Shown: piece after piece, positions 8,873 to 63,313 of the stretch
How the letters are laid out: each line of letters begins with the position of its first letter
Position numbering within the stretch: the stretch's first letter is position 1
Assembly: GCA_964500725.1 (NCBI GenBank)
Contig: CAZCNP010000001.1
Coordinates: 138,950-202,949 of the forward strand
Direction: 5' to 3'
Origin: an uncultured Gammaproteobacteria bacterium
GTDB lineage: Bacteria > Patescibacteriota > Microgenomatia > Daviesbacterales > UBA10151
DNA length: 64,000 nucleotides
Notes under the pieces: generated by a model
The model's database searches: none
What the model saw: the letters and a program-made list of their open reading frames with translations, nothing else
Told to the model about the DNA's origin: nothing
Position numbers and translations under genes: made by a program

Positions 8873-8966
8873 ACGTATTATATCATTTTCATCAATACCA
8901 GCCCAACTTGTAAAACCAGTAGTTTTGATTTATGTTTAGCAAAGAGGAAGTCTGAAGCTCAAGAAA

Positions 8967-9302: not shown

Positions 9303-9315
9303 GTATCTTGCTAAT

Positions 9316-9840: not shown

Positions 9841-9846
9841 ATTAAA

Positions 9847-10059: not shown

Positions 10060-10100
10060 TAACAAATGAAAATGGAAAATGTAAAATTGATAATTTAATA

Positions 10101-10466
10101 TTATCTCTTCTTAATATTCTTTTGGGAACAGGACAGACAATATTGGGCTGAAGGTAAAGCTAAAAGTCTTTCTGTCTCAATCTGCTTACCACAATTATCA
10201 CATTTGCCATATGTGCCAATCTTGATCTTGGAAAGAGCAATTTTTATTATACTGTTCATTCTAATCAGTTGGGCTTTTATAACCTCAGATTTAGTATGTG
10301 TATCAGCAATGTATGAATCAGTCCCAGGCTCTGAAGATTCTGCCAAAGCAGGAGACTTGGCCGGATCATCTTCTTCTATATCTCTGATGCTTTGATCAAC
10401 CTCTTTTTTCTGCCTTTGCAGGTATTTATGAAGAAAATCCAGGGTTTGTTTAGGAAAATTTAACAT
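10101..10466 (-). CDS. DksA/TraR-family C4 zinc-finger protein
   Basis: C-terminal CDNCGKQIETERLLALPSAQYCLSC gives the C-x2-C...C-x2-C DksA/TraR finger. Confidence 0.6.
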   Translation of the reverse strand: MLNFPKQTLDFLHKYLQRQKKEVDQSIRDIEEDDPAKSPALAESSEPGTDSYIADTHTKSEVIKAQLIRMNSIIKIALSKIKIGTYGKCDNCGKQIETERLLALPSAQYCLSCSQKNIKKR

Positions 10467-11304: not shown

Positions 11305-11370
11305 ATCGCTCTAGCCTACCACAAAGTCCACATTTGAATCAAATTGACAAAGGGGGTATACTGAATAGTT

Positions 11371-32847: not shown

Positions 32848-33846
32848 ATGATGTTAATCCCTCCTAAATACATTTTAACTCCTAAAATTTCCCAATTATT
32901 ACAATCTATCGAAGGAAGCAAAGAGGTTATCGATTCAATCGCTATCCCAAAAGAGGTAGAACAAAATATTAGAAGACAATCTACTTTAAAAAGTTCTCTT
33001 TTTTCTGCCCGCATTGAGGGTAATACCTTAACACTGGATGAACTGCCCCACAGACCTTCCAAAGACCAAAAAAAACAAGAGGTTTTCAATATACTAAAAG
33101 CTTTAAACTGGATTTACCAAAGAAGGGCTAAGGATTTACAAGTTAAAGACATCCTAACTCTTCATTCGATGGTCATGGCAGGATTAATAGAAAAAAGTGA
33201 TTTAGCTCAATTCAGAACAGACCTGGGAGCAATCTTTAACTCTGCAGGGATTGCTGTCTATCTTCCACCGCGGCCTTCCCAAATCCTAAAACTCATAAAT
33301 CAATTAACCAATTTTTCCAATAGCTCAAAGGAGACTTTTGTGCCAATTAAAGCTTGCTTGTCTCATTATATATTTGAAAAAATACATCCATTCTTGGACG
33401 GCAATGGACGAGTTGGACGCTTGCTTTTACAACTTATTCTTGCCAAAGGGGGTTACGGAATGAAGGGTCTGCTTACTTTAGAAGAGTTCCTGGATAACCA
33501 CCGAAGCAACTATTACAAAACCTTGGAAGATTCACAAAAAGATGTATCAGATTATCTGGAATTTATGCTAGAGGCTATAGCAACATCTGCTCAGCAAATA
33601 AAACAGACAATTTTGCAGCAAGAAAAAGCAGAACCTGAAAGCTACCTTCTCCCCAGAAGAGCAGAGATTTTAAACATCATCCAAGATCATAAGCTTATTA
33701 ACTTTGATACTCTAAAAAGAAGATTTTTAGCTGTTAATGAAAGAACCTTAAGATACGACCTAAAAAAACTAGCCGACCAAGGCTTAATCAGAAAAAGAGG
33801 TACTACAAAAGGGGTCTACTATGAGGTTGAAGGTGAGAGTGATTAA
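32848..33846 (+). CDS. fic: Fic-family protein (AMPylator) with C-terminal winged-helix domain
   Basis: HPFLDGNGRVGR (HPFx[DE]GNGR); N-terminal SARIEGN matching the [ST]xxxE[GN] auto-inhibitory motif. Confidence 0.85.
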   Translation: MMLIPPKYILTPKISQLLQSIEGSKEVIDSIAIPKEVEQNIRRQSTLKSSLFSARIEGNTLTLDELPHRPSKDQKKQEVFNILKALNWIYQRRAKDLQVKDILTLHSMVMAGLIEKSDLAQFRTDLGAIFNSAGIAVYLPPRPSQILKLINQLTNFSNSSKETFVPIKACLSHYIFEKIHPFLDGNGRVGRLLLQLILAKGGYGMKGLLTLEEFLDNHRSNYYKTLEDSQKDVSDYLEFMLEAIATSAQQIKQTILQQEKAEPESYLLPRRAEILNIIQDHKLINFDTLKRRFLAVNERTLRYDLKKLADQGLIRKRGTTKGVYYEVEGESD

Positions 33847-49300: not shown

Positions 49301-50344
49301 TTATTTTTTAAACAGCAGCTCTTGCTCTATTTGGGAAGTAACGACCTTACCTAAATGTATATAACCTGATTCAGTGACAACCCTTCCTCTGGAAGTTCTT
49401 TTTAAAAAACCAACCTGCATAAGATATGGCTCTATAACCTCCTCAATAGTACCAATATCTTCAGAAATAGTGGCAGCCAAAGTTTCTACCCCCACCGGTC
49501 CGCCGTTAAATTTATCAACAATAGTTAGCAGCAATCTTCTGTCTGAATCATCCAACCCTAGCGAATCAACTTCAAGTAAATCCAGAGTTTGAGCGAGAAG
49601 CTCTTTGGTAACCTTTCCTTCCCCATGTACTTCTGTAACATCTCTGACTCTTTTGAGAAGTTTTAAGGCAATTCTGGGTGTGCCACGGGCTCTTTTAGAG
49701 AGTTGAATAACCTCTTCCTGATCTATCGGCACTTTCAGTTTTTTGGCAGCCCGTTTGATAATTTGAGAAAGTTCCCACGGGGTATAAAAAGATAATCTAT
49801 GGATTACTCCAAAACGGTCCCTTAAAGGCGAGGAAACCATACCAATTCTGGTAGTGGCTCCAATGATAGTAATCTGGGGTAATTCCAACCGTAAAGTTCT
49901 GGCAGATGGACCTTTACCGATCACCATATCTAAAGTAAAATCTTCCATAGCAGGATAAAGGGTTTCTTCTACTACCTTAGACAATCTGTGGATTTCATCA
50001 ATAAATAATATATCATGAGGTTCCAGGCTGGTTAAAATAGCAGCCAGATCTCCAGCTCTTTCAATTGCCGGACCAGAGGTAATTCTGATATTACTACCCA
50101 TTCCTTTAGCTATCAAATGAGCCAATGTTGTTTTACCAAGTCCAGGAGGACCATAAAGCAGGGTGTGTTCCATAGCCTCAGCTCTTTTTTTGGCAGCAGT
50201 GATAGCAATATGAAGTGATTTTTTAATCTTCTCCTGACCAATAAACTCCTCCCAGTCGCTTGCCCTTAAGGAACTAAAAAGTTTTTCTTCCTCAATTGTT
50301 TCTGTCATTTCTGGTACTTTTAATTTAGGTTTAGTGTTGCTCAT
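49301..50344 (-). CDS. ruvB: Holliday junction ATP-dependent DNA helicase RuvB
   Basis: [14 protein letters not shown] Walker A, sensor, winged helix; the ORF track extends to 50377, but the internal Met at 50344 or 50308 is more likely. Confidence 0.9.
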
Positions 50345-50921
50345 ACTTTTTAGTCTTACCCAAATTGCGTAAGGCATAACTTATCTTTTGTTCAAGAGTT
50401 TTTTCAGATAATGGTACAGCCTGAATGGCTTTCATTGCTTCTTGTCTGGTATATCCCAAATTACGTAAGGCTTCGATAGCCTCTATGCTTTCTACACTAT
50501 CTGAAGTTAAATCCAACTCTTTTAATCCTCCCAGTTTGTTCTTAAGCTCAATGATAATCTTTTGAGCATTCTTATGACCTAACCTTGGAACAGTTGTAAA
50601 AAAGTTGGTATCAGCATCTTTAATAGCTTGCTGCACCTTTCCGACTCCTTTATCAATCACTAAAAGAGCAGTTTTAGGACCAATTCCTGAAACAGTTAGA
50701 GTTAATTTAAAAAGTTCCAGTTCACCAGGAGTAAGAAAACCGTATAAATCAAGGATATCCTCCCTGACATGGGTATATATAAATAGCTGCACCTGCGCAG
50801 ATGCTTTAAGAAGACTCAGATAATTTGGTAGAACTGTTACTAAATAACCTACTCCGCAAGTAAGTAGAATAATCTGGTTTGCAGACTTTGAATGTATTGT
50901 GCCGGATAGAAAACCAATCAT
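50331..50921 (-). CDS. ruvA: Holliday junction DNA helicase RuvA
   Basis: MIGFLSGTI... plus HhH motifs (GIGPKTA). Confidence 0.85.
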
Positions 50922-50925
50922 TTCA

Positions 50926-51426
50926 TTATTTTAATTTATACTGCGATACTTTACGCATTTTATACGAACAGGCGTGAGTTATAGCAATAGCTAAAGCATC
51001 TGCTGCATCATCTTGGGTTATCTTCTTAAACAAATGTAGAATTGATCCTACCATACTCTGGATCTGATTCTTATCAGCCCTGCCATAACCTGTTAGAGCT
51101 TGCTTTACCTGAAGAGGAGTATATGAAGCAGTAGGAATATTAGACTTTGAAGCCGCCAGAAGTATGACCCCTCTGGCCTCCCCAACTATTAAGGCTGTTT
51201 TAGAATTAGCAGCAAAATATAACTGTTCAACAGCCAGTACTTCTGGAGTTAGCTTCTCAATAAGGTCGATGATAAAGTCATAAATACTGGTCAACCTATC
51301 TTCTAAGTTAATCCTTGGTGAAGTCTCAAAACAACCATAATCTAAGGCTTTCTGTTTACCGTATTCATCCTTAATTACTCCCCATCCTACTCTAGCAATT
51401 CCTGGATCAATACCTAAAATGACCAT
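50926..51426 (-). CDS. ruvC: crossover junction endodeoxyribonuclease RuvC
   Basis: MVILGIDPGIARVGWGVI RNase-H-fold N-terminus. Confidence 0.85.
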   Translation of the reverse strand: MVILGIDPGIARVGWGVIKDEYGKQKALDYGCFETSPRINLEDRLTSIYDFIIDLIEKLTPEVLAVEQLYFAANSKTALIVGEARGVILLAASKSNIPTASYTPLQVKQALTGYGRADKNQIQSMVGSILHLFKKITQDDAADALAIAITHACSYKMRKVSQYKLK

Positions 51427-51488
51427 AATGCGGATAGTATACCAGAGAAAATAATTTTAAAACGGGACTTTTATGCTAATATGGGAAT

Positions 51489-52313
51489 ATGCAGCATCAG
51501 CAACTTGAAAACTGGCAAAAAATCCCTGAACTTAAAAGTCTTTTTGATCTCACAACAGCGCCTAAACAACTCTATTATTGCGGTGCTTTAAACCCTAAAA
51601 TTTTTAAACACTGCGTATCTGTTGTAGGCAGCCGCAAAATGACTGACTACGGCAGCCGTGTTATTGAAAAAATTATCCCTTCACTCGTTGCGGAAGGCAA
51701 AACTGTTGTTTCAGGTTTCATGTATGGAGTTGACCAATATGCCCACAGGATCTGCGCGGAAAGCGGAGGCAAAACTATCGCAGTTTTGGGATGGGGCATA
51801 AACACACCCCTTGCCGGAGAAGATCTTAAACTGGCCAAAAAAATTATTGACCAGGGAGGAATCTTACTTTCTGAATGGGAGACACAAAGAGCCGCTCACT
51901 GGACTTTTCCTGCAAGAAACAGGGTTGTGGCAGCTCTCTCTTCCGAAATTATTATTGTTGAGGCAGCCGAAAAAAGCGGTTCCCTTATTACAGCCGCTCT
52001 TGCCTCAAAACTTAAAAGGAAACTCTGGGCTGTCCCCGGACCTATTACCAGCCGCACCTCAAAAGGAACAAACCAACTAATCTCATCAGGTAAAGCACAG
52101 ATGTGGTTAGGTAAACCTGCTCAAATCACTTTTCTAAATACCGATAACGACCCAATCATCGATATTCTTCTTTCCGAGGCCTTATCTGCTGATGAAATCG
52201 CCCATAAGCTTAAATCCCCTGTTTCTGAAACAGGAGCAAAGCTATCAATCTTACTGCTCTCTGGTCAAGTCCTTGAAAAAGGAGGAAAATATTACATAGC
52301 CGATGCTAATTAA
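51489..52313 (+). CDS. dprA: DNA processing protein DprA (Smf)
   Basis: [21 protein letters not shown]...[10 protein letters not shown] Rossmann core. Confidence 0.8.
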
Positions 52314-53376
52314 AATCCGTTCAATTGCCAATATTGGTTTAGAGACAATTCCTGTAGATATAGAAGTCGACGTGGCCTCAAGCGGCTTTCCGGGTTTTAC
52401 CATTGTTGGTCTGGCCAGCAAAGCTATTGAAGAAGCAAGGGAAAGAGTAAAAACAGCCATCATCAATTCCAAGCTGAATTTTCCTCCAAAGAAAATCACA
52501 GTTAACTTGGCTCCCGCTGATTTACCAAAAGACGGAGCAGCTTATGATTTACCAATCGCGCTTGGAATTCTTTTGGCAAGCGGACAGCTCAATATTCCGG
52601 ATAATCTTGACTTAAAAAAATCCTTCTTTTATGGAGAGTTATCGCTTGATGGAATGCTGCGGCCAACCAGAGGCATATTGCTTCTGGGTCTTTTTGCACA
52701 AAAAAACGGCTCCGTCACAAAGATTTTCGTGCCGGAAGCAAGCGCTTCTGAAGCAAGTATAGTAACCGGAATAAGGATTTTCCCGGTAAACACTTTATCA
52801 CAATTGGCCGAACATCTACTCGGCAAAGAAATGCACCCGTTAAAGATAAGAGCGATTGCAAAAGACGATGATCTTATTTTAGGAGAATATAACCTTTCGG
52901 AAATTGCCGGGCAGGAACAAGCAAAAAGAGCCTTGATTATAGCAGCTGCCGGCGGGCACAACCTTCTTATGTGGGGTCCTCCGGGAACCGGGAAGACAAT
53001 GCTCTCCCGCGCTTTACCGGGAATCCTTCCGCCACTCAATACATCAGAAGCTCTGGAAGTAACAAGAATTTACTCTGTTTCAGGTCTTTTAGATACCGGA
53101 CAACCTCTGATTTCTAGGCGGCCGTTCCGGGCGCCTCATCATGGCATTTCAAATGCAGGTATGATTGGCGGCGGCAGTAACCCCCTGCCCGGTGAAGTCA
53201 GTTTAGCCCATTTGGGTGTTTTATTCTTAGATGAAATGCCTGAATTTCCAAGAACAGTTTTGGAAAGCCTAAGACAACCTATGGAAGACGGAACTGTTGA
53301 GATTGTCCGCGTGGCAGGACACGTCAAATATCCAGCCTCCTTCACTTTGATTGCCGCAATTAATCCCTGCCCATAG
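52303..53376 (+). pseudogene. comM: comM/yifB (Mg-chelatase-like AAA+ ATPase) 5' portion, truncated by an integrated element
   Basis: Lon-like N-domain plus AAA+ ([23 protein letters not shown]) ending ...[11 protein letters not shown]-stop at 53376, exactly where homologues continue CGY...; the missing C-terminus is at 62445-62957. Confidence 0.8.
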
Positions 53377-53417
53377 GGGTATACATTGTTTGTTAATTGA
53401 AGCTAAAATTATTATAA

Positions 53418-53693
53418 TTGCAAAACAAATATATTAGGAGTATCATTCAATCAATGAAGAAGAAACTATTTTCTTTTATTATCGGTCTTGCTCTCGTCTT
53501 TACCTTTGTTTTGTCTTCTGCGTCTCCTGTCGATGCTTACTCATATAGGGTCAGAGGCTATACAAGATCAAATGGTACTTATGTAAACAGTTATTATAGA
53601 ACTAGCCCAAACTATACAAGATTTGATAATTATTCCACCCGAGGTAACTATAATCCTTATACTGGTAGATTTGGTACAAGAAGCCCTTGGTAA
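53418..53693 (+). CDS. small secreted Tyr/Arg/Asn-rich protein (element cargo)
   Basis: Signal peptide (true start probably MKKKLFSF) then an RGY/YxR-rich low-complexity sequence. Confidence 0.4.
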   Translation: MQNKYIRSIIQSMKKKLFSFIIGLALVFTFVLSSASPVDAYSYRVRGYTRSNGTYVNSYYRTSPNYTRFDNYSTRGNYNPYTGRFGTRSPW

Positions 53694-53740
53694 CATCTTT
53701 TTCCTCCTAGATTATCCCTAGAGTAATACTGATAATATGA

Positions 53741-54301
53741 GTGGATATGACTAAACGTGATGTAGGTTTAATCTTTGCCGGGGCATTATTAGCTTCAGGC
53801 ATTATTTTTATCATTGTGGGCTTTATGTATAAAGATAGCCTGGGTGATTATATTCAAGCAAAATATATCCCACCTGCTTTTAATATTCCTAAGGAGGTTA
53901 ATAGAGATTTTGCTATAGATATAATTGACCGAGTAAATATTGTGCGCAAGAACGCTAATTTACAGCCTCTTAAGGAAAGCTCAGCCCTATCTTATGCAGC
54001 ATTTCTAAGAGCAAAAGAGATTTTAGCTAATCAGGAATTTAACCATTATGCTTCTGGTAGCGGAGATATAAAAGCCCAGAAAGCGGTTGAAGTAGTTGGA
54101 TACAGGTATAGCGAAGTGGGTGAGAACCTAGCCAGAGGATATGATGATCCTAATCTGGTAATTGAAGGGTGGTTGAATTCACCTGAACATAAACAGAATA
54201 TGCTTAAAATTAATTATAAAGAAGTGGGCGTAACGGTATTAGAAGGATTATTTCAAGGTAATAATGAAAACATTATTGTACTGTTACTAGGAAATCCGTA
54301 A
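53741..54301 (+). CDS. CAP/SCP/PR-1-like domain protein, membrane anchored
   Basis: N-terminal TM; EFNHYASGSG...GENLA...GWLNSPEHKQNM resembles the CAP-domain HY / GEN / W..S..H motifs. Confidence 0.5.
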   Translation: MDMTKRDVGLIFAGALLASGIIFIIVGFMYKDSLGDYIQAKYIPPAFNIPKEVNRDFAIDIIDRVNIVRKNANLQPLKESSALSYAAFLRAKEILANQEFNHYASGSGDIKAQKAVEVVGYRYSEVGENLARGYDDPNLVIEGWLNSPEHKQNMLKINYKEVGVTVLEGLFQGNNENIIVLLLGNP

Positions 54302-54309
54302 GAATATAC

Positions 54310-54516
54310 TTAATCAAAGAGTTCTTTTACAGGTATTTTCAGTGCTTTTGCAATCGCATTTATTCTTTTTATTGACGGATTTCTCTTTCCGGCCTCGATC
54401 TCGTTTAAATAGCTGTAATCAATCTTTGATTCATAAGCTAGATCTTCCTGGGTCATCTTTTTGGCTCTTCTCACAGCCCTAATCCTTTTACCTAGTGCTT
54501 CATTAATATTGGCCAT
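54310..54516 (-). CDS. XRE-family HTH transcriptional regulator (repressor-like)
   Basis: 68 aa; KKMTQEDLAYESKIDYSYLNEIEAGKRNPSIKRINAIAKAL cro/cI-type HTH; divergent from a TTGACT-17-TATACT promoter at 54552-54580. Confidence 0.7.
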   Translation of the reverse strand: MANINEALGKRIRAVRRAKKMTQEDLAYESKIDYSYLNEIEAGKRNPSIKRINAIAKALKIPVKELFD

Positions 54517-54592
54517 AAACGAATTATGGCTTTGATATTAAGAAAGTTGTATTGACTATAGTCCAAGATTAGGCATATACTCACCTTAAGAA

Positions 54593-55375
54593 ATGAAAAG
54601 AATAAAAATAGCACTATTTGCTTTATTGTTAAGCATTGCTGTTTTTGTATTTAATCCTGGTTTAACTCTAGCTCAACAAGGATGTTGCTCCTGGCATGGA
54701 GGGATCTCTTATTGCGATTCAAGTGTTGGTACATATGTCTGCAATGATGGTACATATAGTCCCAGTTGTGGTTGTTATAAAGCACTTCCCCCAACTCCTA
54801 CATTTCCTCAAATGAATGCTACTTGGAATTTTTCCGCAAATACTAATGGTACGTATGACGTAAAAGTAGATCTAGATGACAGTAATCCCTCAAGATATAG
54901 CGTAGTCTTAAGTAAGATATTAGGTGGAGACCCGGGGCCATTGGTAGACTATACGAGTCCTGCATTTACTTTTAAAAATATTTATCCTGGCACTTGGTAC
55001 ATGAACACTAAAAAAGATATAAACAATACTTGGTCTACGGTTGCATATTGGAAGATAATTGTTCCCGAGTGGATTGCTCCTACACCAATGCCCATACCTA
55101 TAACTACACCTCCACCAATCGCAGTTACGCCTAACAGTAATGAGTCCTTGCTTAGTTCCTTTTTCCAATGGTTGTTTAACAGAAACAAAAGTGAGAACAT
55201 CGCTGCACCTACTTCAACCCCTACTCCAAAACAGGCTCCTTATAAATGTAACTGTGCAAAGACTTGTACGCAGATTTCTACATGTGCTGAAGCTTATTAT
55301 CAACTAAATACTTGTGGGTGCTCCGTCAGAGATGGTGACGATGATGGTATCCCTTGCGAAAGTTTGTGCAATTAG
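54593..55375 (+). CDS. secreted Cys-rich protein with C-terminal Excalibur (Ca-binding) domain
   Basis: Signal peptide; C-terminal CAEAYYQLNTCGCSVRDGDDDGIPCESLC (D-x-D-x-DG-x-x-CE Excalibur motif). Confidence 0.6.
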   Translation: MKRIKIALFALLLSIAVFVFNPGLTLAQQGCCSWHGGISYCDSSVGTYVCNDGTYSPSCGCYKALPPTPTFPQMNATWNFSANTNGTYDVKVDLDDSNPSRYSVVLSKILGGDPGPLVDYTSPAFTFKNIYPGTWYMNTKKDINNTWSTVAYWKIIVPEWIAPTPMPIPITTPPPIAVTPNSNESLLSSFFQWLFNRNKSENIAAPTSTPTPKQAPYKCNCAKTCTQISTCAEAYYQLNTCGCSVRDGDDDGIPCESLCN

Positions 55376-55387
55376 ATTTATAAGACT

Positions 55388-55726
55388 ATGAAATGGATTA
55401 TTGGAATAACCGCTTTTTTTCTTCTAATTTCCTTAATTTTTAATACTTCGTCCAATTCCAGTAGTACAAAAAATGATACTTCAGTAACAACTACCGTTGA
55501 TTATCCTGATGAAAATATTGAGTCAGATCAAACAGAAGAAGATGTTAATATAGATTCTGGTCCAACAGAATTTAATGGGTATCCTTGTACAGGTGATTGT
55601 AGCGGACATGAAGCAGGATATGAATGGGCTGAAGAACACGGTATAACACAAGACGATGTTGACAATTATTCAGGTAATTCCAATTCTTTTATGGAAGGAA
55701 TGCAATCATATGTTGATGAGAACTAA
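55388..55726 (+). CDS. hypothetical secreted protein
   Basis: Signal peptide; acidic; CTGDCSGHEAGYEWAEEHGI. Confidence 0.4.
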   Translation: MKWIIGITAFFLLISLIFNTSSNSSSTKNDTSVTTTVDYPDENIESDQTEEDVNIDSGPTEFNGYPCTGDCSGHEAGYEWAEEHGITQDDVDNYSGNSNSFMEGMQSYVDEN

Positions 55727-55794
55727 TAGAAAAGATGCTGCCTATGAAAACCGTTAGAATACTATATATGGCATATATAGTATAAACTTGGATT

Positions 55795-56130
55795 ATGAGT
55801 AGAATATTTTTAAGCCTTATTATCTATGCCACATTAATTTTGGCTACATTTACTCTTGGATTAAAAGTAAACAATTTTAGCAATAAAATCAATTTATTTT
55901 GTTTAGCGTTTTTTGCCCTTGTTGCAATGTTTGCTTTTGATAGAATTTCAGACCCTAATATAAAAATCCTTTACTCGTTATGTTTGGTCATTGCTAGTGG
56001 GGTAGGAAGATATGGGACGCAAATGATCGAAAAGAAAAGCAACCGTTTGCATGGTGATGAATATGCGAATATTAGACAATTGATTTACGTAGTTGTATTT
56101 ATCTTTGGTTTATTGGGACTGATTGCCTAG
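55795..56130 (+). CDS. small membrane protein
   Basis: 111 aa, 3-4 TM. Confidence 0.4.
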   Translation: MSRIFLSLIIYATLILATFTLGLKVNNFSNKINLFCLAFFALVAMFAFDRISDPNIKILYSLCLVIASGVGRYGTQMIEKKSNRLHGDEYANIRQLIYVVVFIFGLLGLIA

Positions 56131-56148
56131 ACGGTTAATATTGGTAAT

Positions 56149-56490
56149 TTGGATTTATTGAAATTAGTTATGAACAAAGCAAAAACAGAAATAGAAAATT
56201 TAAAGACTGAGCTTTCGGGACTTAAAATAAGAGTTCAAAGAATTGAGGACTTTTTACTTGAACTGCCTAACGCTGAAGGATATATTCACCAATCACAAGT
56301 TGATGATTTATTCGAAGAGGCTAAAAAAACAGCACTTAAATACAATTTGGTAAGTGCATCCTTACTACAAAGAAGGTTAAAGGTTGGTTATGCCAGAGCT
56401 GCCAGAATCCTTGATGAGTTGGAGGAGGCAGAAATAGTAGGTCCAGGCGAAGGTGGCAAGCCAAGAAAAGTTCTAAGCTCAAAGGTTTAA
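56149..56490 (+). CDS. stand-alone FtsK-gamma winged-helix domain protein
   Basis: Coiled-coil N-terminus then SASLLQRRLKVGYARAARILDELEEAEIVGPGEGGKPRKVL, the FtsK/SpoIIIE gamma (KOPS-binding) domain consensus. Confidence 0.6.
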   Translation: MDLLKLVMNKAKTEIENLKTELSGLKIRVQRIEDFLLELPNAEGYIHQSQVDDLFEEAKKTALKYNLVSASLLQRRLKVGYARAARILDELEEAEIVGPGEGGKPRKVLSSKV

Positions 56491-56499
56491 ATAAAAAAT

Positions 56500-56796
56500 A
56501 TGAAGAAGCATACAAAGCTTTTTTATCGTGCTATCGCCAGGATTAGAGCAGTAGGAGAAAAAAATGGAATGGTTTATCTAAGTCGCATTAAGACTGCGAT
56601 GGGTACGGGTTATACCAGAGCATATAATCTTCATGTTGAATTAATTGAAGCAGGAATAATAGAAAAGCCTAATTTTGCTGATATAGATAAAAAAAGGACT
56701 AAGGGAAATATTATTTGGAAAAATCTAAGTAAGTTTAGGGTTCCGAGGGGGATTACAGAAAAAGAAAAAGCTAGAGTTGAAGAAGAAAGAAGTTAA
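56500..56796 (+). CDS. divergent FtsK-gamma-like winged-helix protein
   Basis: VYLSRIKTAMGTGYTRAYNLHVELIEAGII resembles the same winged-helix core. Confidence 0.4.
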   Translation: MKKHTKLFYRAIARIRAVGEKNGMVYLSRIKTAMGTGYTRAYNLHVELIEAGIIEKPNFADIDKKRTKGNIIWKNLSKFRVPRGITEKEKARVEEERS

Positions 56797-57155
56797 AAAG
56801 TTGAATTACTTAGTTTATTTTCTATTTCATCCAACCTTTTAACAATATCCGAAGCCTCATAAGCATCTAACCAGCATCTTGTTAGAAAGCCCATTGAGCT
56901 ACCAACTGGAACAGGCACACCTTCAGCCCAAACTCCATTAATAACTTTACCTAAGAATCTTTTAACATCCTCCGGTGTTTCCAGCCTCACAGTCTTGCCA
57001 TAGAAGCCCTGTAAAGCCCTATTACGACCACCTTTACTGCTTGCTACCAATTTAGCCTCATTGCTTGTAGGATCGTGCCTGAAACAAAATTCCTTATCTT
57101 TTTGTGCAAAGGCTTGGCACTGTTGGTTATTATTTAATATCTTTTTGCATTTCAT
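56793..57155 (-). CDS. hypothetical protein (N-terminal C-x5-C...C-x-RH)
   Basis: 120-aa ORF, 4-nt overlaps on both sides. Confidence 0.4.
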   Translation of the reverse strand: MKCKKILNNNQQCQAFAQKDKEFCFRHDPTSNEAKLVASSKGGRNRALQGFYGKTVRLETPEDVKRFLGKVINGVWAEGVPVPVGSSMGFLTRCWLDAYEASDIVKRLDEIENKLSNSTF

Positions 57156-57460
57156 TGTGCTATTAATTTACCCAAAATTGGAATAGGTATAGGAACACCA
57201 CCTGTTCTAGCTAATTCCAGTAATTCCGGTAATTCCTCTTTATCTACAATAGGTGAACCAATACACTCTTTCCCTCTGAAAAATACCCATATATCAGATG
57301 ATTTACATCCTGCACATTCAGTACCTAAGCTATGTTGTTTATGTTCTTGTGAGCAGACGCAAGGCTTCTCACCACAAATACAAACCCAAATAGGCTCATT
57401 CGGGCTACTTATAATGCTAACTTTCTTCTCCAAATTGTTCACTCTTGTTATAGTATTCAT
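57152..57460 (-). CDS. small Cys-rich (zinc-binding) protein
   Basis: CICGEKPCVCS...CAGC. Confidence 0.4.
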   Translation of the reverse strand: MNTITRVNNLEKKVSIISSPNEPIWVCICGEKPCVCSQEHKQHSLGTECAGCKSSDIWVFFRGKECIGSPIVDKEELPELLELARTGGVPIPIPILGKLIAQ

Positions 57461-57795
57461 AGTTCTGTTAAAGCAAGACTATCAAAAGTGTCTTGGCTAG
57501 TTAAAATAATCTCCATAAAGCCTTCGCCTTTTCTTATAATATTCTCTAATTCCTCTATTTCTTTTTGAACCTCTTGTTCGTTCTCGTTTCTTTCTTTTGC
57601 TAGTTTTAGAATGTGGTTTTGATAATTATTCCATTCCTGAAGGGTTACAAGATCTTTACCATCATTTTGATTAACATGATTAGCAAAACCATACTTCCAA
57701 CGATCCATTTTAACAATTAATTCATAAGTAGTATTTTTTGGCTGTACCTTATTCAACTGTTTCTTTATCTGTCTAATCCTACTCATTACCTTCAT
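57457..57795 (-). CDS. hypothetical protein
   Basis: 112-aa helical ORF in a co-directional, overlapping array. Confidence 0.4.
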   Translation of the reverse strand: MKVMSRIRQIKKQLNKVQPKNTTYELIVKMDRWKYGFANHVNQNDGKDLVTLQEWNNYQNHILKLAKERNENEQEVQKEIEELENIIRKGEGFMEIILTSQDTFDSLALTEL

Positions 57796-57984
57796 TTATT
57801 GTCCCCCTTCAATTATTCGGTCTAGATCTTGATCACTTAGGTCTTTTAGCTTGTCGCAGTAACTGATCCCGTATTTTATTTTAAGCTCAATAGGAATGTC
57901 CAATTCTTCTGGAGTTGGTAATTTTTTCCGACTAAGAATCTGGTCAATTTTTTTATTTAGCTGTTTAATCTGTTGTCTATTCAT
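57796..57984 (-). CDS. hypothetical small protein
   Basis: 62-aa ORF. Confidence 0.35.
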   Translation of the reverse strand: MNRQQIKQLNKKIDQILSRKKLPTPEELDIPIELKIKYGISYCDKLKDLSDQDLDRIIEGGQ

Positions 57985-57986
57985 AA

Positions 57987-60191
57987 CTAAGTTATAGGGG
58001 GTACCCCCTCGCCTGTTTCTCCAGTTTTATCGTTAGAGCTTATTCCGCTATTTCCGCTTTTTCCGCCATCCTCATTTGAATCGTTTGTGCTTAGGGTGTT
58101 TGATTGTTCGATATATTGGTTTAATTTATCTAAATACTTTATTCTTGAATGCGGATGCTGATTAAGGGGATTAAGCTGAAAAAGCTCCTTAGGTCTACCG
58201 CTTGTGATTTCCTTAGTAACCTTAATCCTGTTTATCTTTAATAGAGATGCAATCGAGCTTGAGATTTGTTCTGAGCTCTTATGACCCCCGAAATAATCAT
58301 TAAGTGCAGTTTTAGTCAAACCTTGAGGGTTCTTTTTCAACGCAGTTAAGATTTCATTACCCAAAAGGTCACCAACACTGTTTTGAAAAATATACTCTAG
58401 GGATTCAACCGCATAATCAATTATTGCGACAGCTGCTTTTAAGTGCTCAACTCTAATCTCCTTAGACAGATCTAAAAGGCAATAGAGACAGGCAAGTCTA
58501 ATGGTATAAGGCTCAATCCTTGCTGACATCGCACCAACAAGACCGGGTATATCAGTAGTCAAGTCATGGTATATTTTTGTCCATAGGGGGTTAGCCTCTT
58601 TTGACCACCTAATTTCGTCATTCTTCCACATATCGCCCCACTGGTTTGTTTTGTCTATTTCGTCTGCTGTCCACCCATCCCTATTTTGACCCTGCGCAAA
58701 GAGGACCGCTTTTTTAAGCTGTTCCCTTACTGGTGCCACGTCTTCGTCTATGAGATTTCCTCCATGAGGAAGCTCCTTTGAACGCCTTTGGCAAAACCAT
58801 AGGAATCGGTTGCAGAATCCATTAGCCATCTCTGTCCCTGTGAGATACCGGAGCAACTCATCCCGGGTAATGTGACCAATAATGGCAATATGGGTGTTTG
58901 TAGCTTTAAGCGGCGCATTTCTGGTAAGGGTTCTTAGGTCCCCTCGATCCCAAGCACTCCTAATAATGGGGCTCAGCGTATTACCTTCCCTGGACATAAC
59001 CTTTAAAGTTGATGCAAACTCTTCTTCAACTAAAAGTAGTCGCTTATCTTTTATACCTTCCTCAACCACAATCTCTTCCCCGTCCTTTATTTTTGCTGTA
59101 GCATCTCTAACTGCATTAATTAACCCTTCGCCACTAGAGGACCCGGATACGATATTATTGTTCTCCCATTCTTCGTCAACCTCTCCAAAAAATCTCCGCA
59201 CCCGGTTTAACGCAGTTCCTTTGCGTGCCTTTGAAGTATCACCAACATAAACGGAAAACAGTTTTAGTTTATGCTTTGTTGCCTCAATCTGGAAAAACGG
59301 GCCGTTCCCAATGATAGAACCAAAGACGGTTAAGAAGTTAATAAGTAGCGCAACAGGATCTGACTCTGTATGAGGTTCAACTAACTTTACAAAATCACCT
59401 GCCAGCCCATGATATGCAGCTGGATCAAGAGGAGAGGGCCATTCTATTTCTAGGTTTTCAATATTATTTTCTCTAGATTCTCTTGAGCCTTTTTCTTTAC
59501 TAGCTATAGATTGAAAGGTAGCCCACAATTCCGTCTCAGCTAAGGGCGGCTGATTTTTGAGGTTCCAACCCCTTACTAAATCCCAACAAGAGGTAAGCCA
59601 GTCGCTCTCTGGAAATTTGCTTAGGAGTTTTCCTATAATGGATGCTGCAGATTCGTTTCTTTTGCCCTCGGGTACACCCTTAAGTACTTCGGGATTAAAT
59701 TTTGAAGCTCTTGAATTATTTAAGAACCTTTCTGGAAGCTTGGCAAAATTATTTAAAAAAGGTGTAGTAAGCCATTTGTATTTGTTTCCTGAAGCATGAA
59801 CAGATGGAGCTATTATAATATAACCACCTTCGGCTTTTAGATCGATTCCTGGTTCAATACCATTTTGAGAATGACAATTCCCATTATATTCATAGAGGTA
59901 GTGCCAACCTCCACCGCCGGTCTGAGCCTTAACAGTATCAGTTAAACCTTCGGTTGAGCCTCCATGGCGGGGATCAATATCAACTACAGTAATGCCGGCA
60001 AGTTTACCTGTTACAACACCTATATTCGCCCAAGGCCATAGCGTCCACCAATTTTCTACCTCCTCTATTGTCGGTAGTCTGCCCTGGTAATCTTTCCAAG
60101 ACTCAACGCAGGGTTTTTTGCTGCTTGGGTTTATGGGGATTACCGGCCAGTTTTTTGCGAGGTATTTTACTGCTGCTTCTTTGAGTGTCAT
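57987..60191 (-). CDS. bifunctional primase-polymerase (PrimPol) domain replication protein with DUF3987-like C-terminal region
   Basis: NWPVIPINPSSKKPCVESWKDYQ...WTLWPWANIGVVTGKLAGITVVDIDPRHGG matches the Prim-Pol N-terminal domain; 734 aa. Confidence 0.75.
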   Translation of the reverse strand: MTLKEAAVKYLAKNWPVIPINPSSKKPCVESWKDYQGRLPTIEEVENWWTLWPWANIGVVTGKLAGITVVDIDPRHGGSTEGLTDTVKAQTGGGGWHYLYEYNGNCHSQNGIEPGIDLKAEGGYIIIAPSVHASGNKYKWLTTPFLNNFAKLPERFLNNSRASKFNPEVLKGVPEGKRNESAASIIGKLLSKFPESDWLTSCWDLVRGWNLKNQPPLAETELWATFQSIASKEKGSRESRENNIENLEIEWPSPLDPAAYHGLAGDFVKLVEPHTESDPVALLINFLTVFGSIIGNGPFFQIEATKHKLKLFSVYVGDTSKARKGTALNRVRRFFGEVDEEWENNNIVSGSSSGEGLINAVRDATAKIKDGEEIVVEEGIKDKRLLLVEEEFASTLKVMSREGNTLSPIIRSAWDRGDLRTLTRNAPLKATNTHIAIIGHITRDELLRYLTGTEMANGFCNRFLWFCQRRSKELPHGGNLIDEDVAPVREQLKKAVLFAQGQNRDGWTADEIDKTNQWGDMWKNDEIRWSKEANPLWTKIYHDLTTDIPGLVGAMSARIEPYTIRLACLYCLLDLSKEIRVEHLKAAVAIIDYAVESLEYIFQNSVGDLLGNEILTALKKNPQGLTKTALNDYFGGHKSSEQISSSIASLLKINRIKVTKEITSGRPKELFQLNPLNQHPHSRIKYLDKLNQYIEQSNTLSTNDSNEDGGKSGNSGISSNDKTGETGEGVPPIT

Positions 60192-60415
60192 GGAAGTTTA
60201 ATCTCCTCTAACAGCCTGTTAAACTTGTCCATTAATTCTGAAGTTTGGGGGGCAAAGCGGATGTATCTTTTGCAGCTACCACAGGATTCTTTAATTTGAG
60301 GAATATACTTTATGTACCCTTGGTTATAGGAAATTAATTTGAGAGTAAAAATTCTATCTTCCTCAGCACAATTGGGGCAAGGTTTGGTAGACTCAATTAA
60401 TATAAGATCAGTCAT
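60188..60415 (-). CDS. small zinc-ribbon protein
   Basis: CPNC...CGSC pairs. Confidence 0.4.
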   Translation of the reverse strand: MTDLILIESTKPCPNCAEEDRIFTLKLISYNQGYIKYIPQIKESCGSCKRYIRFAPQTSELMDKFNRLLEEIKLP

Positions 60416-60566
60416 GGCTAATCTCCTTAAATAAACCTACAAGATTGTCGGTAATGATCTTTTGGGTGAGGATAGAAATATTTTTATCCAAATTAGAAGT
60501 TACCCGGAAGCTTTGGGTTCTGTCTTTATTAATTCTTTTAAGCGTTAGGTTATGTTTATTTTGCAT
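60408..60566 (-). CDS. small basic protein (52 aa), candidate recombination directionality factor
   Basis: MQNKHNLTLKRINKDRTQSFRV...; its TGA overlaps the ATG of the downstream gene (ATGACTGA); below the ORF-track size cut-off; call based on position only. Confidence 0.25.
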   Translation of the reverse strand: MQNKHNLTLKRINKDRTQSFRVTSNLDKNISILTQKIITDNLVGLFKEISHD

Positions 60567-60591
60567 ATTATGCTTTTAACTTAAGGTGGTT

Positions 60592-60765
60592 TTATCCTCT
60601 AATCTCCTCTGCTGGAACTAAAATGTATCCCTTGCCATCACAGCCATGACAAATCTGCTTCTGCCAATTCACCCTGCCGAATCCCGCACATACGGGGCAC
60701 TTTTGTGCAATTGATTTTGCTTTTATTTTTTCAATCTTTACTTCGAATTGTTTTTGAAAATCCAT
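60592..60765 (-). CDS. small zinc-finger protein (57 aa)
   Basis: MDFQKQFEVKIEKIKAKSIAQKCPVCAGFGRVNWQKQICHGCDGKGY...; two C-x2-C pairs; below the ORF-track cut-off. Confidence 0.3.
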   Translation of the reverse strand: MDFQKQFEVKIEKIKAKSIAQKCPVCAGFGRVNWQKQICHGCDGKGYILVPAEEIRG

Positions 60766-60787
60766 CTCCTACCTCCTATTTCAGCCC

Positions 60788-60818
60788 ATAAAAAAACCAC
60801 AGGTTTTACCCTGTGGTT
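60788..60818 (-). terminator. rho-independent terminator downstream of the integrase gene
   Basis: On the minus strand, a 9-bp stem AACCACAGG / CCTGTGGTT with a 6-nt loop, followed by TTTTTTTAT. Confidence 0.55.
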
Positions 60819-60890
60819 GCCGGCTGTTTTGCCGGATGACCAGACTAAAAGGACATTAACTTAAAAGTAACTATATGTCAAGAAAGCAAA

Positions 60891-62441
60891 TCAAGCAATG
60901 AAATTAATCTTTACTCTATCTTTCTTGACAATTATACTGCCAATTAAACCTTGCAGAATTCTTCTTTTTATTTCCAGCTGTGCCTTATCAAATTTAGTAG
61001 AAAAGTCTTTTAAAAAAGCTTTCTTCTGCTTTGTCAGAGCTTCTTTGTCTAAGGATTTTGATAGCTTTTCTTCTAATATTGCAAGTTTATTTTTTGCTTC
61101 TTCAATCTGTGCCAAGTTTTCCTCTTTAGCTACGGCATAATCTTGCAGGGTGATAACACTCGCTTCATAGGCTTGCCAGTGTCTTTTCGCAGCCTCTGTA
61201 AGTGTTTCTAGTGTGGCTACAAGGTGTGCTTTTTCCTGTTCCTCCTCCTTCTTGCCATCGTCTGTAGCTCGTTGCATAAATTCCTTATAAATTGCCGGAT
61301 TGTTTACGATTTGTTGAATCTTGGTTATTACAGCACCTTCTAATTTAGTAGCACCCATAATATGACCCTTACATTCAGTTATTCCATTTCCATAACTATA
61401 TGAACTGGCACAATAGTAACTAAAATATGGTTTAGTATTTGGGTATTTTTCTCTTTGCATAAGACTTCTACGGTTTGTTTTATAATAAATATTTCTGCCA
61501 CAATAACCACATTTAGCTAAACCTACCAATAAACCTTTGCTTCCCACTACCCGGCCTCGTAGTGACGTTTTTTGCTTAATTCTTTCCTGTACTTTATTGA
61601 ATAAATCCTCGGCGACAATTACCGGGTGTGTACCTTTAACAAGTATCCATTCTTCTTTAGGAGTGATTAATCTTTTCCCTCGTTTTGTTGGCCTATGGTT
61701 ATGTCTAACATACCCGATAAATACTGGATTTTTGAGTATTCTTTGAATATAAGCACAAGACCATAACTTACCAGTAGGGGAAGGAATTTTGGACTCATTT
61801 AATTCTGTTGCTATCCTTCTGTAGCTATAGTCCCTATTCCCGTACCAATTGAACATATTTCTTATAACTTCTGCTTCTTTTTCATTTTCTGTTACCTTTA
61901 GAATAACTGAGGGATGGATTGATACATATTCTTTGTCGTAGCCATAGGGCACATCATGTAACATTCCCTTTAATGCCCTGTTTTTAGCCCCCTGGCGGAC
62001 TTTGCGTCTTAAGCTTTTAATATCCAAGTCAGCTTTTATGTCTGATATACCCTCATAGATAACACCGGAATCATCTTCGTCTGGATCGTACTTATCAGGT
62101 GGAATCGGTTCTCTCGGTTGATCAATGGAGTAAACCTGTACCAGGCAGTCTTTTAATTGCTCCCTTATAATTGTTGCTGTTGCTCTATCCCTGGCCAATC
62201 TATCAGCATCCCTTACAATTACTAAATCGAATTTACGAAACTTGGCATCTTCAAGAAGTTTCAGGAGTTCTAATCTGTTGGCTATTTCATGCCCTTTTTG
62301 TGTATCCTGGTAGATATTTACTAATTCCCAGCTATGTTCTTGGATAGTCCTCTTAGCTCTTTCTATCTGGTCTTCGTGGCTTCCTTTATCTGATCCGGCT
62401 TGTTCTTCTGTACTAACTCGGGTATAAATTGCAGTTCTCAT
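60891..62441 (-). CDS. large serine recombinase (integrase)
   Basis: MRTAIYTRVSTEEQ catalytic-Ser N-terminus, resolvase domain, recombinase and zinc-ribbon region (CGYCGR...YYCAS), and C-terminal coiled coil. The ORF-track N-terminal extension to 62546 is actually the comM frame on the other strand. Confidence 0.85.
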   Translation of the reverse strand: MRTAIYTRVSTEEQAGSDKGSHEDQIERAKRTIQEHSWELVNIYQDTQKGHEIANRLELLKLLEDAKFRKFDLVIVRDADRLARDRATATIIREQLKDCLVQVYSIDQPREPIPPDKYDPDEDDSGVIYEGISDIKADLDIKSLRRKVRQGAKNRALKGMLHDVPYGYDKEYVSIHPSVILKVTENEKEAEVIRNMFNWYGNRDYSYRRIATELNESKIPSPTGKLWSCAYIQRILKNPVFIGYVRHNHRPTKRGKRLITPKEEWILVKGTHPVIVAEDLFNKVQERIKQKTSLRGRVVGSKGLLVGLAKCGYCGRNIYYKTNRRSLMQREKYPNTKPYFSYYCASSYSYGNGITECKGHIMGATKLEGAVITKIQQIVNNPAIYKEFMQRATDDGKKEEEQEKAHLVATLETLTEAAKRHWQAYEASVITLQDYAVAKEENLAQIEEAKNKLAILEEKLSKSLDKEALTKQKKAFLKDFSTKFDKAQLEIKRRILQGLIGSIIVKKDRVKINFIA

Positions 62442-62444
62442 TAG

Positions 62445-62957
62445 GAGTATTATACCAACAATGTCAACCCCTGTCCCTGCGGCTATCTTGGACATCCAAA
62501 ACGGGAATGTAAATGTTCCGATAAACAAATCGCCAAATACAGACACCGTATTTCCGGACCAATCCTGGACCGTGTTGATCTTTTTGTTCCGGTTTCGGCT
62601 ATTGAATCTGAAAAACTTTCTCTAACCTCCAACAATCAACCCAACCGGATTTCTTCCGAAGAGGCAAAAAAGCAAGTCATAAAGGCGAGAAAAATTCAAA
62701 ATAAGCGTTTTAAAGATGAAGAGAAAAGAAGTCTCTATACAAATTCCCAGATGCGGAATGCCGATGTCAAAAAATACTGTTTTCTGACATCTGAGGCGGA
62801 AAATTTATTAAAACTGGCCGCTGATAAGTTTGATTTTTCAGCCCGGAGCTATTTCCGTCTGATTAAAGTAGCACGCACAATTGCCGATCTTAAAGCCATA
62901 AAAAATATCCTACCCCTACATATGGCTGAAGCCCTCCAATACAAACAGATTATATGA
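62445..62957 (+). pseudogene. comM: comM/yifB 3' portion (Mg-chelatase C-terminal domain) separated from its 5' part by the element
   Basis: The frame reads ...NPCPCGYLGHPKRECKCSDKQIAKYRHRISGPILDRVDLFVPV...SARSYFRLIKVARTIADLKA...HMAEALQYKQII*, the exact continuation of the protein ending NPCP at 53376. Confidence 0.8.
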
Positions 62958-63313
62958 AGCAGGATAACCGAAAGGTCGGATTTTTAGGGGAAAATCTGGC
63001 AGAACAGGCTTTAAAGAACAAGGGTTTTAAGATTTTGGAAAGAAATTTCAGTAATAAGTTTGGAGAAATTGATATTATAGCGCAGGATCATGATACTTTG
63101 GTTTTTATCGAAGTAAAAACCAAAAAGGGCACGAGATTAGGCTTACCTGAGGAAATGATTAATACTTATAAATTAAAAAAAGTTCAAAAAATGGCGGAAG
63201 TGTATTTAAATGGCAAAACCCTGCCCTGCCGCATTGATGTAGTAGCAATCATCCTGTCAGAAGACAATAAGCTTCTGAACCTAAATCACTATCAGGCAGT
63301 TTATCTGAAATAA
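62954..63313 (+). CDS. yraN: YraN-family (UPF0102) endonuclease
   Basis: GENLAEQALKNKGFKILERNF...GEIDIIAQD...FIEVKTKK. Confidence 0.7.
   Translation: MKQDNRKVGFLGENLAEQALKNKGFKILERNFSNKFGEIDIIAQDHDTLVFIEVKTKKGTRLGLPEEMINTYKLKKVQKMAEVYLNGKTLPCRIDVVAIILSEDNKLLNLNHYQAVYLK

Follow-up and report, generated by a model that had tools for sequence, protein, structure and literature searches.

The 64,000-nucleotide stretch analyzed here (the window: positions 138,950 to 202,949 of contig CAZCNP010000001.1, assembly GCA_964500725.1) carries, at about 53370-62473, a 9.1-kb element lodged inside the host competence gene comM. Its genes comprise a large serine recombinase, a primase-helicase replicase accompanied by small open reading frames (ORFs), an XRE-family regulator, several secreted and membrane proteins, a stand-alone FtsK-gamma protein with a second winged-helix protein (wH2) beside it, and a small zinc-knuckle protein (Table 1). 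The element sits in the middle of a host recombination and competence cluster (49301-53376 and 62474-63313), with ruvB, ruvA, ruvC, dprA and the 5' part of comM to its left, and the 3' part of comM and a nuclease-like gene of the UPF0102/YraN family to its right. Host genes make up both outer flanks, so the element does not belong to a larger prophage, and no structural phage genes adjoin it, in keeping with a first-pass annotation of the sequence that had argued against a prophage. That annotation had delimited 53418-60765, which covers the cargo only, the integrase gene (60891-62441) lying outside this range.

Insertion site and serine recombinase

The left comM ORF in its integrated state (52303-53376) codes for the first 356 residues of ComM/YifB and ends in ...AAINPCP followed by a stop codon, with its Mg_chelatase match breaking off at profile position 160 of 207. 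The comM frame restarts within the listed 5' end of the integrase ORF (...NPCPCGYLGHPKRECKC...), and the flanks 52303-53369 and 62474-62957, when joined at CCCTG, make up a 1551-nt ORF for a protein of 516 amino acids (aa) that matches the YifB/ComM model TIGR00368 with 559 bits over positions 3-499 of 499. The right end is laid out as TATACCAACAATGTCAAC-CCCTG-TCCCTGCGGCTAT, and the element-side arms at the two ends, ACAATGTCAACCCCT and AGGGGTATACATTGT, are imperfect inverted repeats of each other, which is the pattern expected of the attP site of a serine integrase. These features show that a large serine recombinase inserted the element at the NPCPCGY codons of comM and, as read from the two junctions, that recombination at the CCCTG core would give back an intact 516-aa ComM. 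The junctions predicted after excision are …CAATGTCAACCCCTGCCCATAGGGGTATACATTG… for attP and …GCAATTAATCCCTGTCCCTGCGGCTATCTTGG… for attB.

The recombinase combines Resolvase (PF00239, 2.7e-19), Recombinase (PF07508, 2.5e-25) and zinc-ribbon (PF13408, 2.5e-8) domains with the catalytic-serine motif MRTAIYTRVSTEEQ, and matches the phrog_95 integrases at 8e-90; it is akin to CcrB, CcrC and XisF, but scores under the cut-offs of those families. Its start is taken as the ATG at 62441 (MRTAIYTRVS...); the listed GTG at 62546 would cross attR into comM. A promoter-like GGGACA-17-(TG)TATAAT spans the attR crossover on the minus strand (62449-62477) and ends 7 nt before this ATG, an arrangement suggesting that the integrase mRNA would be leaderless and that its -35 region would change with the integration state.

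The same integrated arrangement recurs in 9 of the 9 places shown (11 contigs read), which come from several sequencing runs. The G+C contents of element and host are the same (37.4% versus 38.1%), and the replicase has a 100%-identical counterpart in Candidatus Daviesbacteria (GCA_016198315.1).

Related compact elements of Microgenomates

The hallmark gene of a wider set of elements is that of the zinc-knuckle protein, which has 114 homologues at 44-87% identity. All six of those carrying a name belong to the Microgenomates group, and one of the seven loci from genome collections is titled Gammaproteobacteria, probably through a binning error. Positions C24, F25 and H27 are invariant in the family, and C3 and C13 nearly so. 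The AlphaFold (AF2) model (predicted local distance difference test, pLDDT, 85.8) finds no match in the PDB and a single marginal one in BFVD (E 7e-3); the sequence has no match in Pfam or NCBIfam and only a weak one to phrog_9747 (function unknown), and is absent from IMG/VR. Its candidacy as a small terminase was rejected, there being no supporting Pfam, NCBIfam, PHROG or structure match.

Beyond the window, a large serine recombinase is found in six of eight distinct zinc-knuckle loci (L001, L020, L021, L022, L024 and L027), while L003 has a small Resolvase-only gene with a weak recombinase-like match and no recombinase was seen in L023; L020 and L026 are the same contig, and L025 and L028-L031 were checked by tblastn only. 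Because the recombinases of L020, L021, L022, L024 and L027 differ from the present one (below 30% identity or no detectable match), the insertion sites of these elements probably differ as well; their replicases also differ, that of L001 aside. Where the recombinases fall below 30% identity the zinc-knuckle protein is still 75-87% identical, and this absence of co-variation argues against its being the recombination directionality factor.

The closest relative is L001, whose recombinase and replicase are 82% and 85% identical to those in the window. Its P arm adjoins the comM frame PCPCGFLGD, i.e., it occupies the same comM codon, so that the first-pass pointer to comM as the insertion site, and to related elements in candidate phyla radiation (CPR) genomes there, was well placed. 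Its cargo (6974-11346) is made up of a 660-aa polytopic protein whose HEYLH (HExxH) motif appears metalloprotease-like, a 394-aa protein with a signal anchor, and a 135-aa protein resembling a response-regulator receiver domain, none of which has a Pfam, PHROG or PADLOC match; it also has a homologue of the small secreted protein o55388, and is without the CAP and gamma genes. In L027, the XRE gene heads an operon with an excisionase-like helix-turn-helix (HTH) protein, a 513-aa protein that by position we take to be the replicase, and the recombinase, and opposes a second operon coding for an Excalibur protein, a Cys-rich secreted protein and homologues of o55388 and the Tyr/Arg-rich protein. 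These comparisons show a family of compact Microgenomates elements that had not been named before, most with a large serine recombinase, which share the zinc-knuckle protein, an XRE regulator, small ORFs and a partly conserved secreted-protein module; what varies is the genes for the CAP protein, the membrane protein o55795 and the two winged-helix proteins.

The replicase unites Prim-Pol (1.6e-28), PriCT_1 (7e-8) and DUF3987 (4e-7) domains in one protein. It has 3182 homologues, its matches in isolated phages and plasmids being partial and at most 36% identical, and single-sequence scans of GTDB genomes and IMG/VR, which reach close relatives only, returned nothing. Among the small ORFs downstream of it, the 102-aa and 62-aa proteins have tblastn matches in L001, L003, L020, L022, L025 and L027, and homologues of the small ORFs on its 5' side likewise precede the PrimPol gene in L001, L002, L003 and L022. 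Of the two hairpins in the leader of this operon, the second resembles a terminator (AACCACAGG...CCTGTGGTT, then a T run; 60818-60795) and stands directly before the Shine-Dalgarno sequence of the zinc-ribbon ORF, which itself has a weak Q-antiterminator-like PHROG match; the leader may be an attenuator.

The XRE regulator has homologues of 33-46% identity in the elements L002, L021, L022, L024, L025, L027 and L030, and a palindrome, GCCATAA-ACGA-ATTATGGC, overlaps its start codon. A promoter-like TTGACT-18-TATACT (54552-54581) faces away from it, ahead of the Excalibur gene. The first-pass annotation had placed a secreted-protein module under this divergent regulator; this holds for the operon running from the Excalibur gene to wH2, whereas the XRE gene separates the Tyr/Arg-rich and CAP genes from that operon. 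A perfect 12+12 AT-rich palindrome, ATACTATATATG-C-CATATATAGTAT, occupies 55759-55783 between o55388 and the membrane-protein gene, and may serve as an operator or origin or form a hairpin.

Of the envelope-directed proteins, the Tyr/Arg-rich one has a 48%-identical homologue in L027 and a promoter-like TTGTTA-17-TATAAT at 53390-53418. The CAP protein matches PF00188 at E 2.7e-15 (57.7 bits against a cut-off of 21.1), and the YkwD family TIGR02909 at 1.9e-20 with 73 bits, under the 171-bit cut-off. The Excalibur match (PF05901) is 21.6 bits, 0.4 under the cut-off of 22.0; the calcium loop RDGDDDGIPCE is present, and L027 has a canonical loop, DRDSDGIACE, in a gene at the equivalent position. 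Homologues of o55388 occur in L001 (86% over 73 residues) and L027 (66%). In PHROGs, relatives from phage and prophage genomes are found for the Tyr/Arg-rich and CAP proteins and for the two ends of the Excalibur protein. The idea that the secreted proteins are free cargo does not survive these comparisons, as the Excalibur, o55388 and Tyr/Arg-rich proteins recur beside the XRE gene in related elements.

All ORFs named in the first-pass annotation are present where it had placed them, its two-module layout holds, and its domain identities are borne out by Pfam matches to Prim-Pol, DUF3987, FtsK_gamma, CAP and HTH_3; gene calls and homologues point to three likelier starts, ATG 56170 for the FtsK-gamma protein, ATG 53454 for the Tyr/Arg-rich protein and ATG 53747 for the CAP protein. 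Its observation that virion genes are lacking also stands: among 17 ORFs there was no capsid, portal, terminase or tail match in Pfam or PHROG at E up to 0.1. No relaxase, TraG/VirD4, VirB4 or type IV secretion system (T4SS) family was matched among the element ORFs, and PADLOC returned nothing for four of them (the membrane protein, both gamma-type proteins and one small ORF) or for six L001 proteins. An inovirus, microvirus or plasmavirus was rejected for want of a morphogenesis ATPase, rolling-circle Rep or capsid gene.

Table 1. Features of the element and of the interrupted comM gene (positions in the window)
Feature	Coordinates	Strand	Basis and remarks
comM 5' part (YifB/Mg-chelatase-like AAA+)	52303..53369	+	Pfam ChlI, Mg_chelatase; interrupted by the insertion
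attL	53340..53415		Host arm ...ATTAAT, core CCCTG (53365-53369), element P' arm CCCATAGGGGTATACATTGTTTGTTAAT; read from sequence
Small secreted Tyr/Arg/Asn-rich protein, 79 aa	53454..53693	+	Signal peptide ending VDA/YS; phrog_29674 E 1.5e-16
Membrane-anchored CAP/SCP (YkwD-like) protein, 184 aa	53747..54301	+	PF00188, phrog_16914; N-terminal hydrophobic anchor
XRE-family HTH regulator, 68 aa	54310..54516	-	HTH_3 E 1.3e-14
Secreted Cys-rich protein, Pro-rich linker, C-terminal Excalibur-like calcium loop	54593..55375	+	PF05901 borderline; phrog_5854, phrog_6000
o55388, small secreted acidic protein	55388..55726	+	C..DCSGHEAGYEWAE motif; no family match
o55795, small polytopic membrane protein, about 4 hydrophobic segments	55795..56130	+	Read from sequence; no family match
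Stand-alone FtsK-gamma protein, 106 aa	56170..56490	+	Three-heptad amphipathic N-terminal helix and gamma winged helix; PF09397
wH2, diverged gamma-like winged helix with C-terminal helix	56500..56796	+	hhalign and AF2 model
Hallmark protein, 120 aa, CCCH zinc knuckle and three helices	56793..57155	-	114 homologues
Three small ORFs (102, 112, 62 aa)	57152..57984	-	No family matches
Replicase, Prim-Pol, PriCT_1 and DUF3987 helicase-like, 734 aa	57987..60191	-	Pfam; PHROG primase/polymerase and helicase families
Three small ORFs 5' of the replicase	60188..60765	-	Include DnaJ-type CxxCxGxG zinc-ribbon protein (60592-60765); family matches weak
Intergenic leader	60766..60890	-	Promoter-like TTGACA-17-TAATGT followed by two hairpins; precedes the replication operon
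Large serine recombinase (integrase), 516 aa	60891..62441	-	Resolvase, Recombinase, Zn_ribbon_recom; YTRVS at N-terminus
attR	62445..62500		Element-side P arm TATACCAACAATGTCAAC, then core CCCTG (62469-62473) and host arm TCCCTGCGGCTATCTTGG; sequence and promoter scan
comM 3' part	62474..62957	+	Mg_chelatase_C 6.8e-19; frame ...CPCGYLGHPKRECKC...

The stand-alone FtsK-gamma protein and its winged-helix neighbor

The gamma protein matches FtsK_gamma (PF09397) at E 1.4e-23, with 82.8 bits against a cut-off of 30.6, across profile positions 3-62 of 63. The domain is preceded by about 45 residues with the conserved core IExLKTEIxGLKIRLRRIExFL, in which the heptad a and d positions of the N-terminal helix read I-L-I-L-L-I-L; a short coiled coil is therefore indicated. 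More than 100 homologues of 100-120 aa with the same conserved N-terminal helix make up a family of stand-alone gamma proteins, in which Q74, R75, G80, Y81, R83, A84 and A85 are invariant. The gamma part is close to real CPR FtsK C-termini (about 75% identity, counted by eye), and the gene is an accessory one, probably derived from cellular FtsK.

In a by-eye alignment to RQFRIGYNRAAR, the equivalents of E. coli FtsK R1289, G1294-Y1295, R1297 and R1300 are kept, and those of N1296 and E1303, two residues which we take to have roles in contacts, are Ala and Asp. The stretch RRLKVGYAR is identical to the E. coli RQFRIGYNR at five of nine positions, with the key arginine kept. This E. coli peptide, including R1289, is enough to activate XerD and overlaps the surface that binds the FtsK-orienting polar sequences (KOPS) (PMC5052618). 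The kept stretch gives the first-pass suggestion of a XerCD/dif link at most indirect support.

The gamma homologues examined lie in mobile-element-like settings of CPR genomes: in L015 they neighbor T4SS genes and a PD-(D/E)XK nuclease, in L017 a restriction-modification/CBASS-type (SMODS)/XRE-M78 island, and in L018/L019 the homologue stands directly upstream of another serine recombinase. In phages, 213 gamma records were found, in which the domain is mostly C-terminal on 250-350-aa proteins without an assigned role, some of them in recombination modules. The commonest identifiable fusion in viral contigs is to the small terminase (Terminase_2 in 6 of 36 representatives and Phage_terminase in 5 of 36), followed by FtsK-type motors and nucleases. 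Single gamma genes of unknown role in phages, as well as a fusion of gamma with the small terminase TerS in the Bacillus phages Sam46 and Sam112, are on record (PMC8190038). As regards nucleases, gamma homologues lie at or near a PDDEXK_1 nuclease gene in two unrelated CPR loci (L015, 7341-8339; L018/L019, 6313-8357), and some of the gamma domains in viral contigs are joined to Mrr_cat or T5orf172 nucleases; the domain may be a targeting module for nucleases.

The first-pass annotation had read two adjacent FtsK-gamma genes at this point. The first is such a gene, and the second, wH2, falls below the Pfam threshold and is gamma-like by profile alignment and structural model only. It reaches 13.4 bits against PF09397, where 30.6 are needed (E 0.066), and its BLASTP comparison with the neighboring gamma protein is also non-significant; the profile of its family (20 homologues among 1.8 billion representatives) aligns by hhalign to the gamma profile with 94.9% probability (E 4e-8). 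In the AF2 model (pLDDT 90.7), wH2 folds as a winged helix, superposing on FtsK gamma (2VE8) with a root-mean-square deviation of 2.2-3.5 Å and a target-normalized template-modeling (TM) score of 0.59-0.67. The structure prediction that the first-pass annotation had called for thus returns a winged-helix fold and is not specific to FtsK gamma, as the Foldseek E of about 0.2 is non-significant and Rrf2 and MarR winged helices score equally. Equivalents of R1289 and R1300 are missing, with Thr and Asn in their place. A conserved gamma/wH2 pair was considered and rejected, no wH2 homologue being found beside the gamma homologues in L015-L019; fused proteins with two winged helices (tandem gamma-type) exist in P0185 and P0229. 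Outside the window, P0367, a 476-aa metagenomic protein with eight near-identical repeats of about 55 residues, emerges as a weak relative of wH2, which is probably a low-complexity or repeat artefact.

A lead, rather than evidence, comes from the octamer GGGCAGGG, the KOPS octamer of Pseudomonas and E. coli. The window has six copies, every one of them on the minus strand (13167, 15917, 45817, 53183, 53365 and 63219), against about 1.2 expected, and none of 100 shuffles reached six; such a pattern would fit a KOPS-like polar guide motif in the Daviesbacteria genome. Its sole copy in the element, reading CCCTGCCC on the plus strand, sits on the attL junction, so that it would be in attP and not in attB or attR. 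Its presence at the junction may be due simply to the Pro-Cys-Pro codons. The partial attP of L001, an element with no gamma gene, would not contain it, and the counts of GGGNAGGG in other CPR loci are too few to be informative. It would be conceivable, and in our estimate very improbable, that the coiled-coil gamma protein reads the host FtsK guide code, including this octamer, and acts, possibly with wH2, as an accessory or directionality factor of the recombinase or ties excision and integration to the segregation of the host chromosome.

Proposed life cycle, alternative readings and known counterparts

Taken as a whole, the locus is on balance best explained as a 9.1-kb integrative, self-replicating, non-viral element of the Candidatus Daviesbacteria (CPR) chromosome. 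After excision, the circle would be copied by the element's own primase-helicase, with the XRE regulator presumably controlling the operon from the Excalibur gene to wH2 via the start-codon palindrome and the overlapping divergent promoters. The gene comM is a known hotspot for the insertion of mobile elements, its loss lowers transformation with heterologous DNA, and its disruption may shield elements from deletion (PMC11472951). By keeping comM broken, the integrated element would similarly reduce heterologous recombination and with it the chance of its own deletion by transformation. The envelope proteins may change the cell surface, serving in exclusion or in interaction with the partner of the CPR cell. 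As the element is without transfer machinery of its own, its spread would be vertical or by outside means, such as a helper phage, another element or DNA uptake. The three-heptad helix probably oligomerizes the gamma protein, which most likely binds host FtsK guide sequences and/or a XerD-type recombinase, this being the least certain part of the scheme. Through such binding the element, when episomal, would be able to exploit or disturb chromosome processing in the host, and wH2 may be a partner with a different specificity.

Several findings weigh against this reading. Neither an excised circle nor an empty site nor an intact ComM allele came to light, the nine places shown all being of the integrated form; the attP junction was not recovered from JGI metagenomes or IMG/VR, nor the P arm from JGI metagenomes; and a collection of 15 billion proteins does not contain the joined ComM. 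The ends of L001-L003 are likewise without terminal overlap and give no sign of circular contigs. As no excised form was found, mobility is deduced from the intact parts and from a relative that occupies the same site with other cargo. None of the element genes was recognized as coding for a recombination directionality factor. With regard to the gamma protein, the window gave no match to the canonical dif consensus when up to 3 mismatches were allowed, nor was a Xer or FtsK gene found among the ten candidate-sized window ORFs scanned, and the closest relatives, L001 and L027, do without the gamma gene, so that it is not needed for the basic cycle. An element that exploits the host Xer system (IMEX) was in turn rejected, as there is no dif match in the window and the element has its own serine recombinase.

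Among the alternatives, the element might be a phage satellite that is held by XRE, induced by a helper and packaged in helper capsids, with an oligomeric gamma protein (perhaps with wH2) as a small-terminase-like factor. Its size and gene set (integrase, XRE, primase-helicase, small ORFs and no capsid) match the plan of P4 and the phage-inducible chromosomal islands (PICIs), and the small terminase is, as noted, the commonest identifiable viral fusion partner of gamma, known also from Sam46 and Sam112 (PMC8190038). However, no homologue of terS, of a capsid-size-redirection factor or of a head-tail adaptor was found in Pfam or PHROG, the order of helix followed by winged helix is the reverse of that in the small terminase, and the gamma gene, being absent from the closest relatives, is not a packaging device of the family. 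The zinc-knuckle protein is moreover absent from IMG/VR, where a single-sequence replicase query that reaches close relatives only also came back empty, and no helper phage is known. We therefore regard a satellite as unlikely, if worth keeping in view. More doubtful still is a reversible comM switch tamed by the host in the manner of "active lysogeny", in which regulated excision would give ComM back whenever incoming DNA is to be recombined and reintegration would switch it off, with the other genes as leftovers. Excision at the core would indeed yield full-length ComM, the promoter-like site across attR would make integrase expression depend on the state of the junction, the recombinase is akin (under the family cut-off) to XisF of the Anabaena fdxN element, and the insertion lies within the ruvABC-dprA-comM cluster; but the replication and accessory genes are intact and 48-85% identical in a relative with other cargo, which better fits an autonomous element, the relatives use other recombinases and probably other sites, and an empty-site allele was not found. 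Sequence alone cannot separate the satellite, mobilizable-element and domesticated-switch readings. For the first-pass proposal of a satellite or integrative mobilizable element no positive sign was seen, as neither a terS-like or capsid-redirecting gene, a relaxase nor a helper was found, nor, in the collections searched, an excised form or empty site.

That the locus is the decaying remnant of a larger prophage or conjugative element would account for the missing transfer and virion genes and the lack of evidence for excision. Against such decay, both att sites are intact and symmetric, every ORF is open, at least six further Microgenomates loci share the compact plan, no pseudogene fragments or scraps of structural genes were seen and the flanks are host DNA, all of which leaves the idea with little to commend it. 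Small membrane-vesicle viruses have a similar genome size and replicase type, and the five envelope-directed proteins do form a partly conserved module, from which a tiny non-tailed virus might build its particle in the manner of plasmaviruses or pleolipoviruses. This we consider barely credible, given that no virion-protein family or morphogenesis ATPase was matched, the zinc-knuckle family is absent from IMG/VR, the module genes vary among close relatives and CPR cells are, as a matter of general knowledge, walled.

An integrative, self-replicating element, which remains the preferred reading, invites comparison with several known systems. A parallel can be drawn with gene-splitting systems such as Listeria A118/phi10403S in comK, Bacillus SPbeta and skin, and the Anabaena fdxN element with XisF, which have in common with it a three-domain serine recombinase, insertion within a gene, short-core att sites with inverted-repeat arms and exact restoration of the gene; most of those, however, are either domesticated developmental elements or prophages, complete or defective, of 40-130 kb, whereas here there are 9 kb, a PrimPol and no virion genes. 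AbaR/AbGRI and other comM islands of Acinetobacter and the Pasteurellaceae share the target and the same proposed pay-off (PMC11472951), but AbaR-type islands use Tn7-like transposition, whereas the present element uses a serine recombinase in a CPR host whose competence is putative. PICIs, P4-like satellites and phage-inducible chromosomal minimalist islands (PICMIs) resemble it in their 6-15 kb, integrase, XRE-type regulator, primase-helicase and lack of capsid genes; in contrast to their usual tyrosine integrase, the one here is of the serine type, and no terS, capsid-remodeling or helper-sensing gene was recognized. Archaeal integrative PrimPol plasmids and cryptic integrated elements, and the actinomycete integrative and conjugative elements (AICEs) of the pSAM2 type, are likewise small, combine an integrase with a Prim-Pol-type replicase and alternate between integrated and episomal states. 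The AICEs have an FtsK-like TraB motor for transfer, whereas here only the gamma winged helix is present without a motor, and the lineage and hallmark genes differ. As for mimics of FtsK gamma in mobile elements, XafT of TLC-phi is not homologous to gamma and serves a Xer-integrating element, unlike the present element with its own recombinase and no dif; here the PF09397 domain is a true one, in which most of the stretch contacting XerD and KOPS is kept, and it is joined to a short coiled-coil helix rather than to a motor, or to a terminase as in Sam46 and Sam112.

Small integrative elements with a serine recombinase and a PrimPol replicase are thus a known kind, of which the family-level variant is new; no known principle is overturned, and the mechanisms proposed above are inferences. 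The mobile elements of CPR bacteria, which have tiny genomes and depend on other cells, are almost uncharacterized. The locus defines, with exact ends, a compact Microgenomates element family together with a marker gene and a testable attP/attB pair of a new serine integrase, and extends the range of comM-breaking mobile elements to a distant phylum and a different mechanism of insertion. The stand-alone gamma proteins, as near copies of the host domain in mobile-element-like settings of several CPR genomes, also offer a tractable route to the role of loose gamma genes in phages and other elements. Elsewhere, the host portion of the window encodes a protein of the Fic/DOC family (PF02661, 5e-18) at 32848-33846, and the long ORFs at 4999-8160 (1053 aa) and 47006-48838 (610 aa) have no Pfam match at E up to 1e-5.

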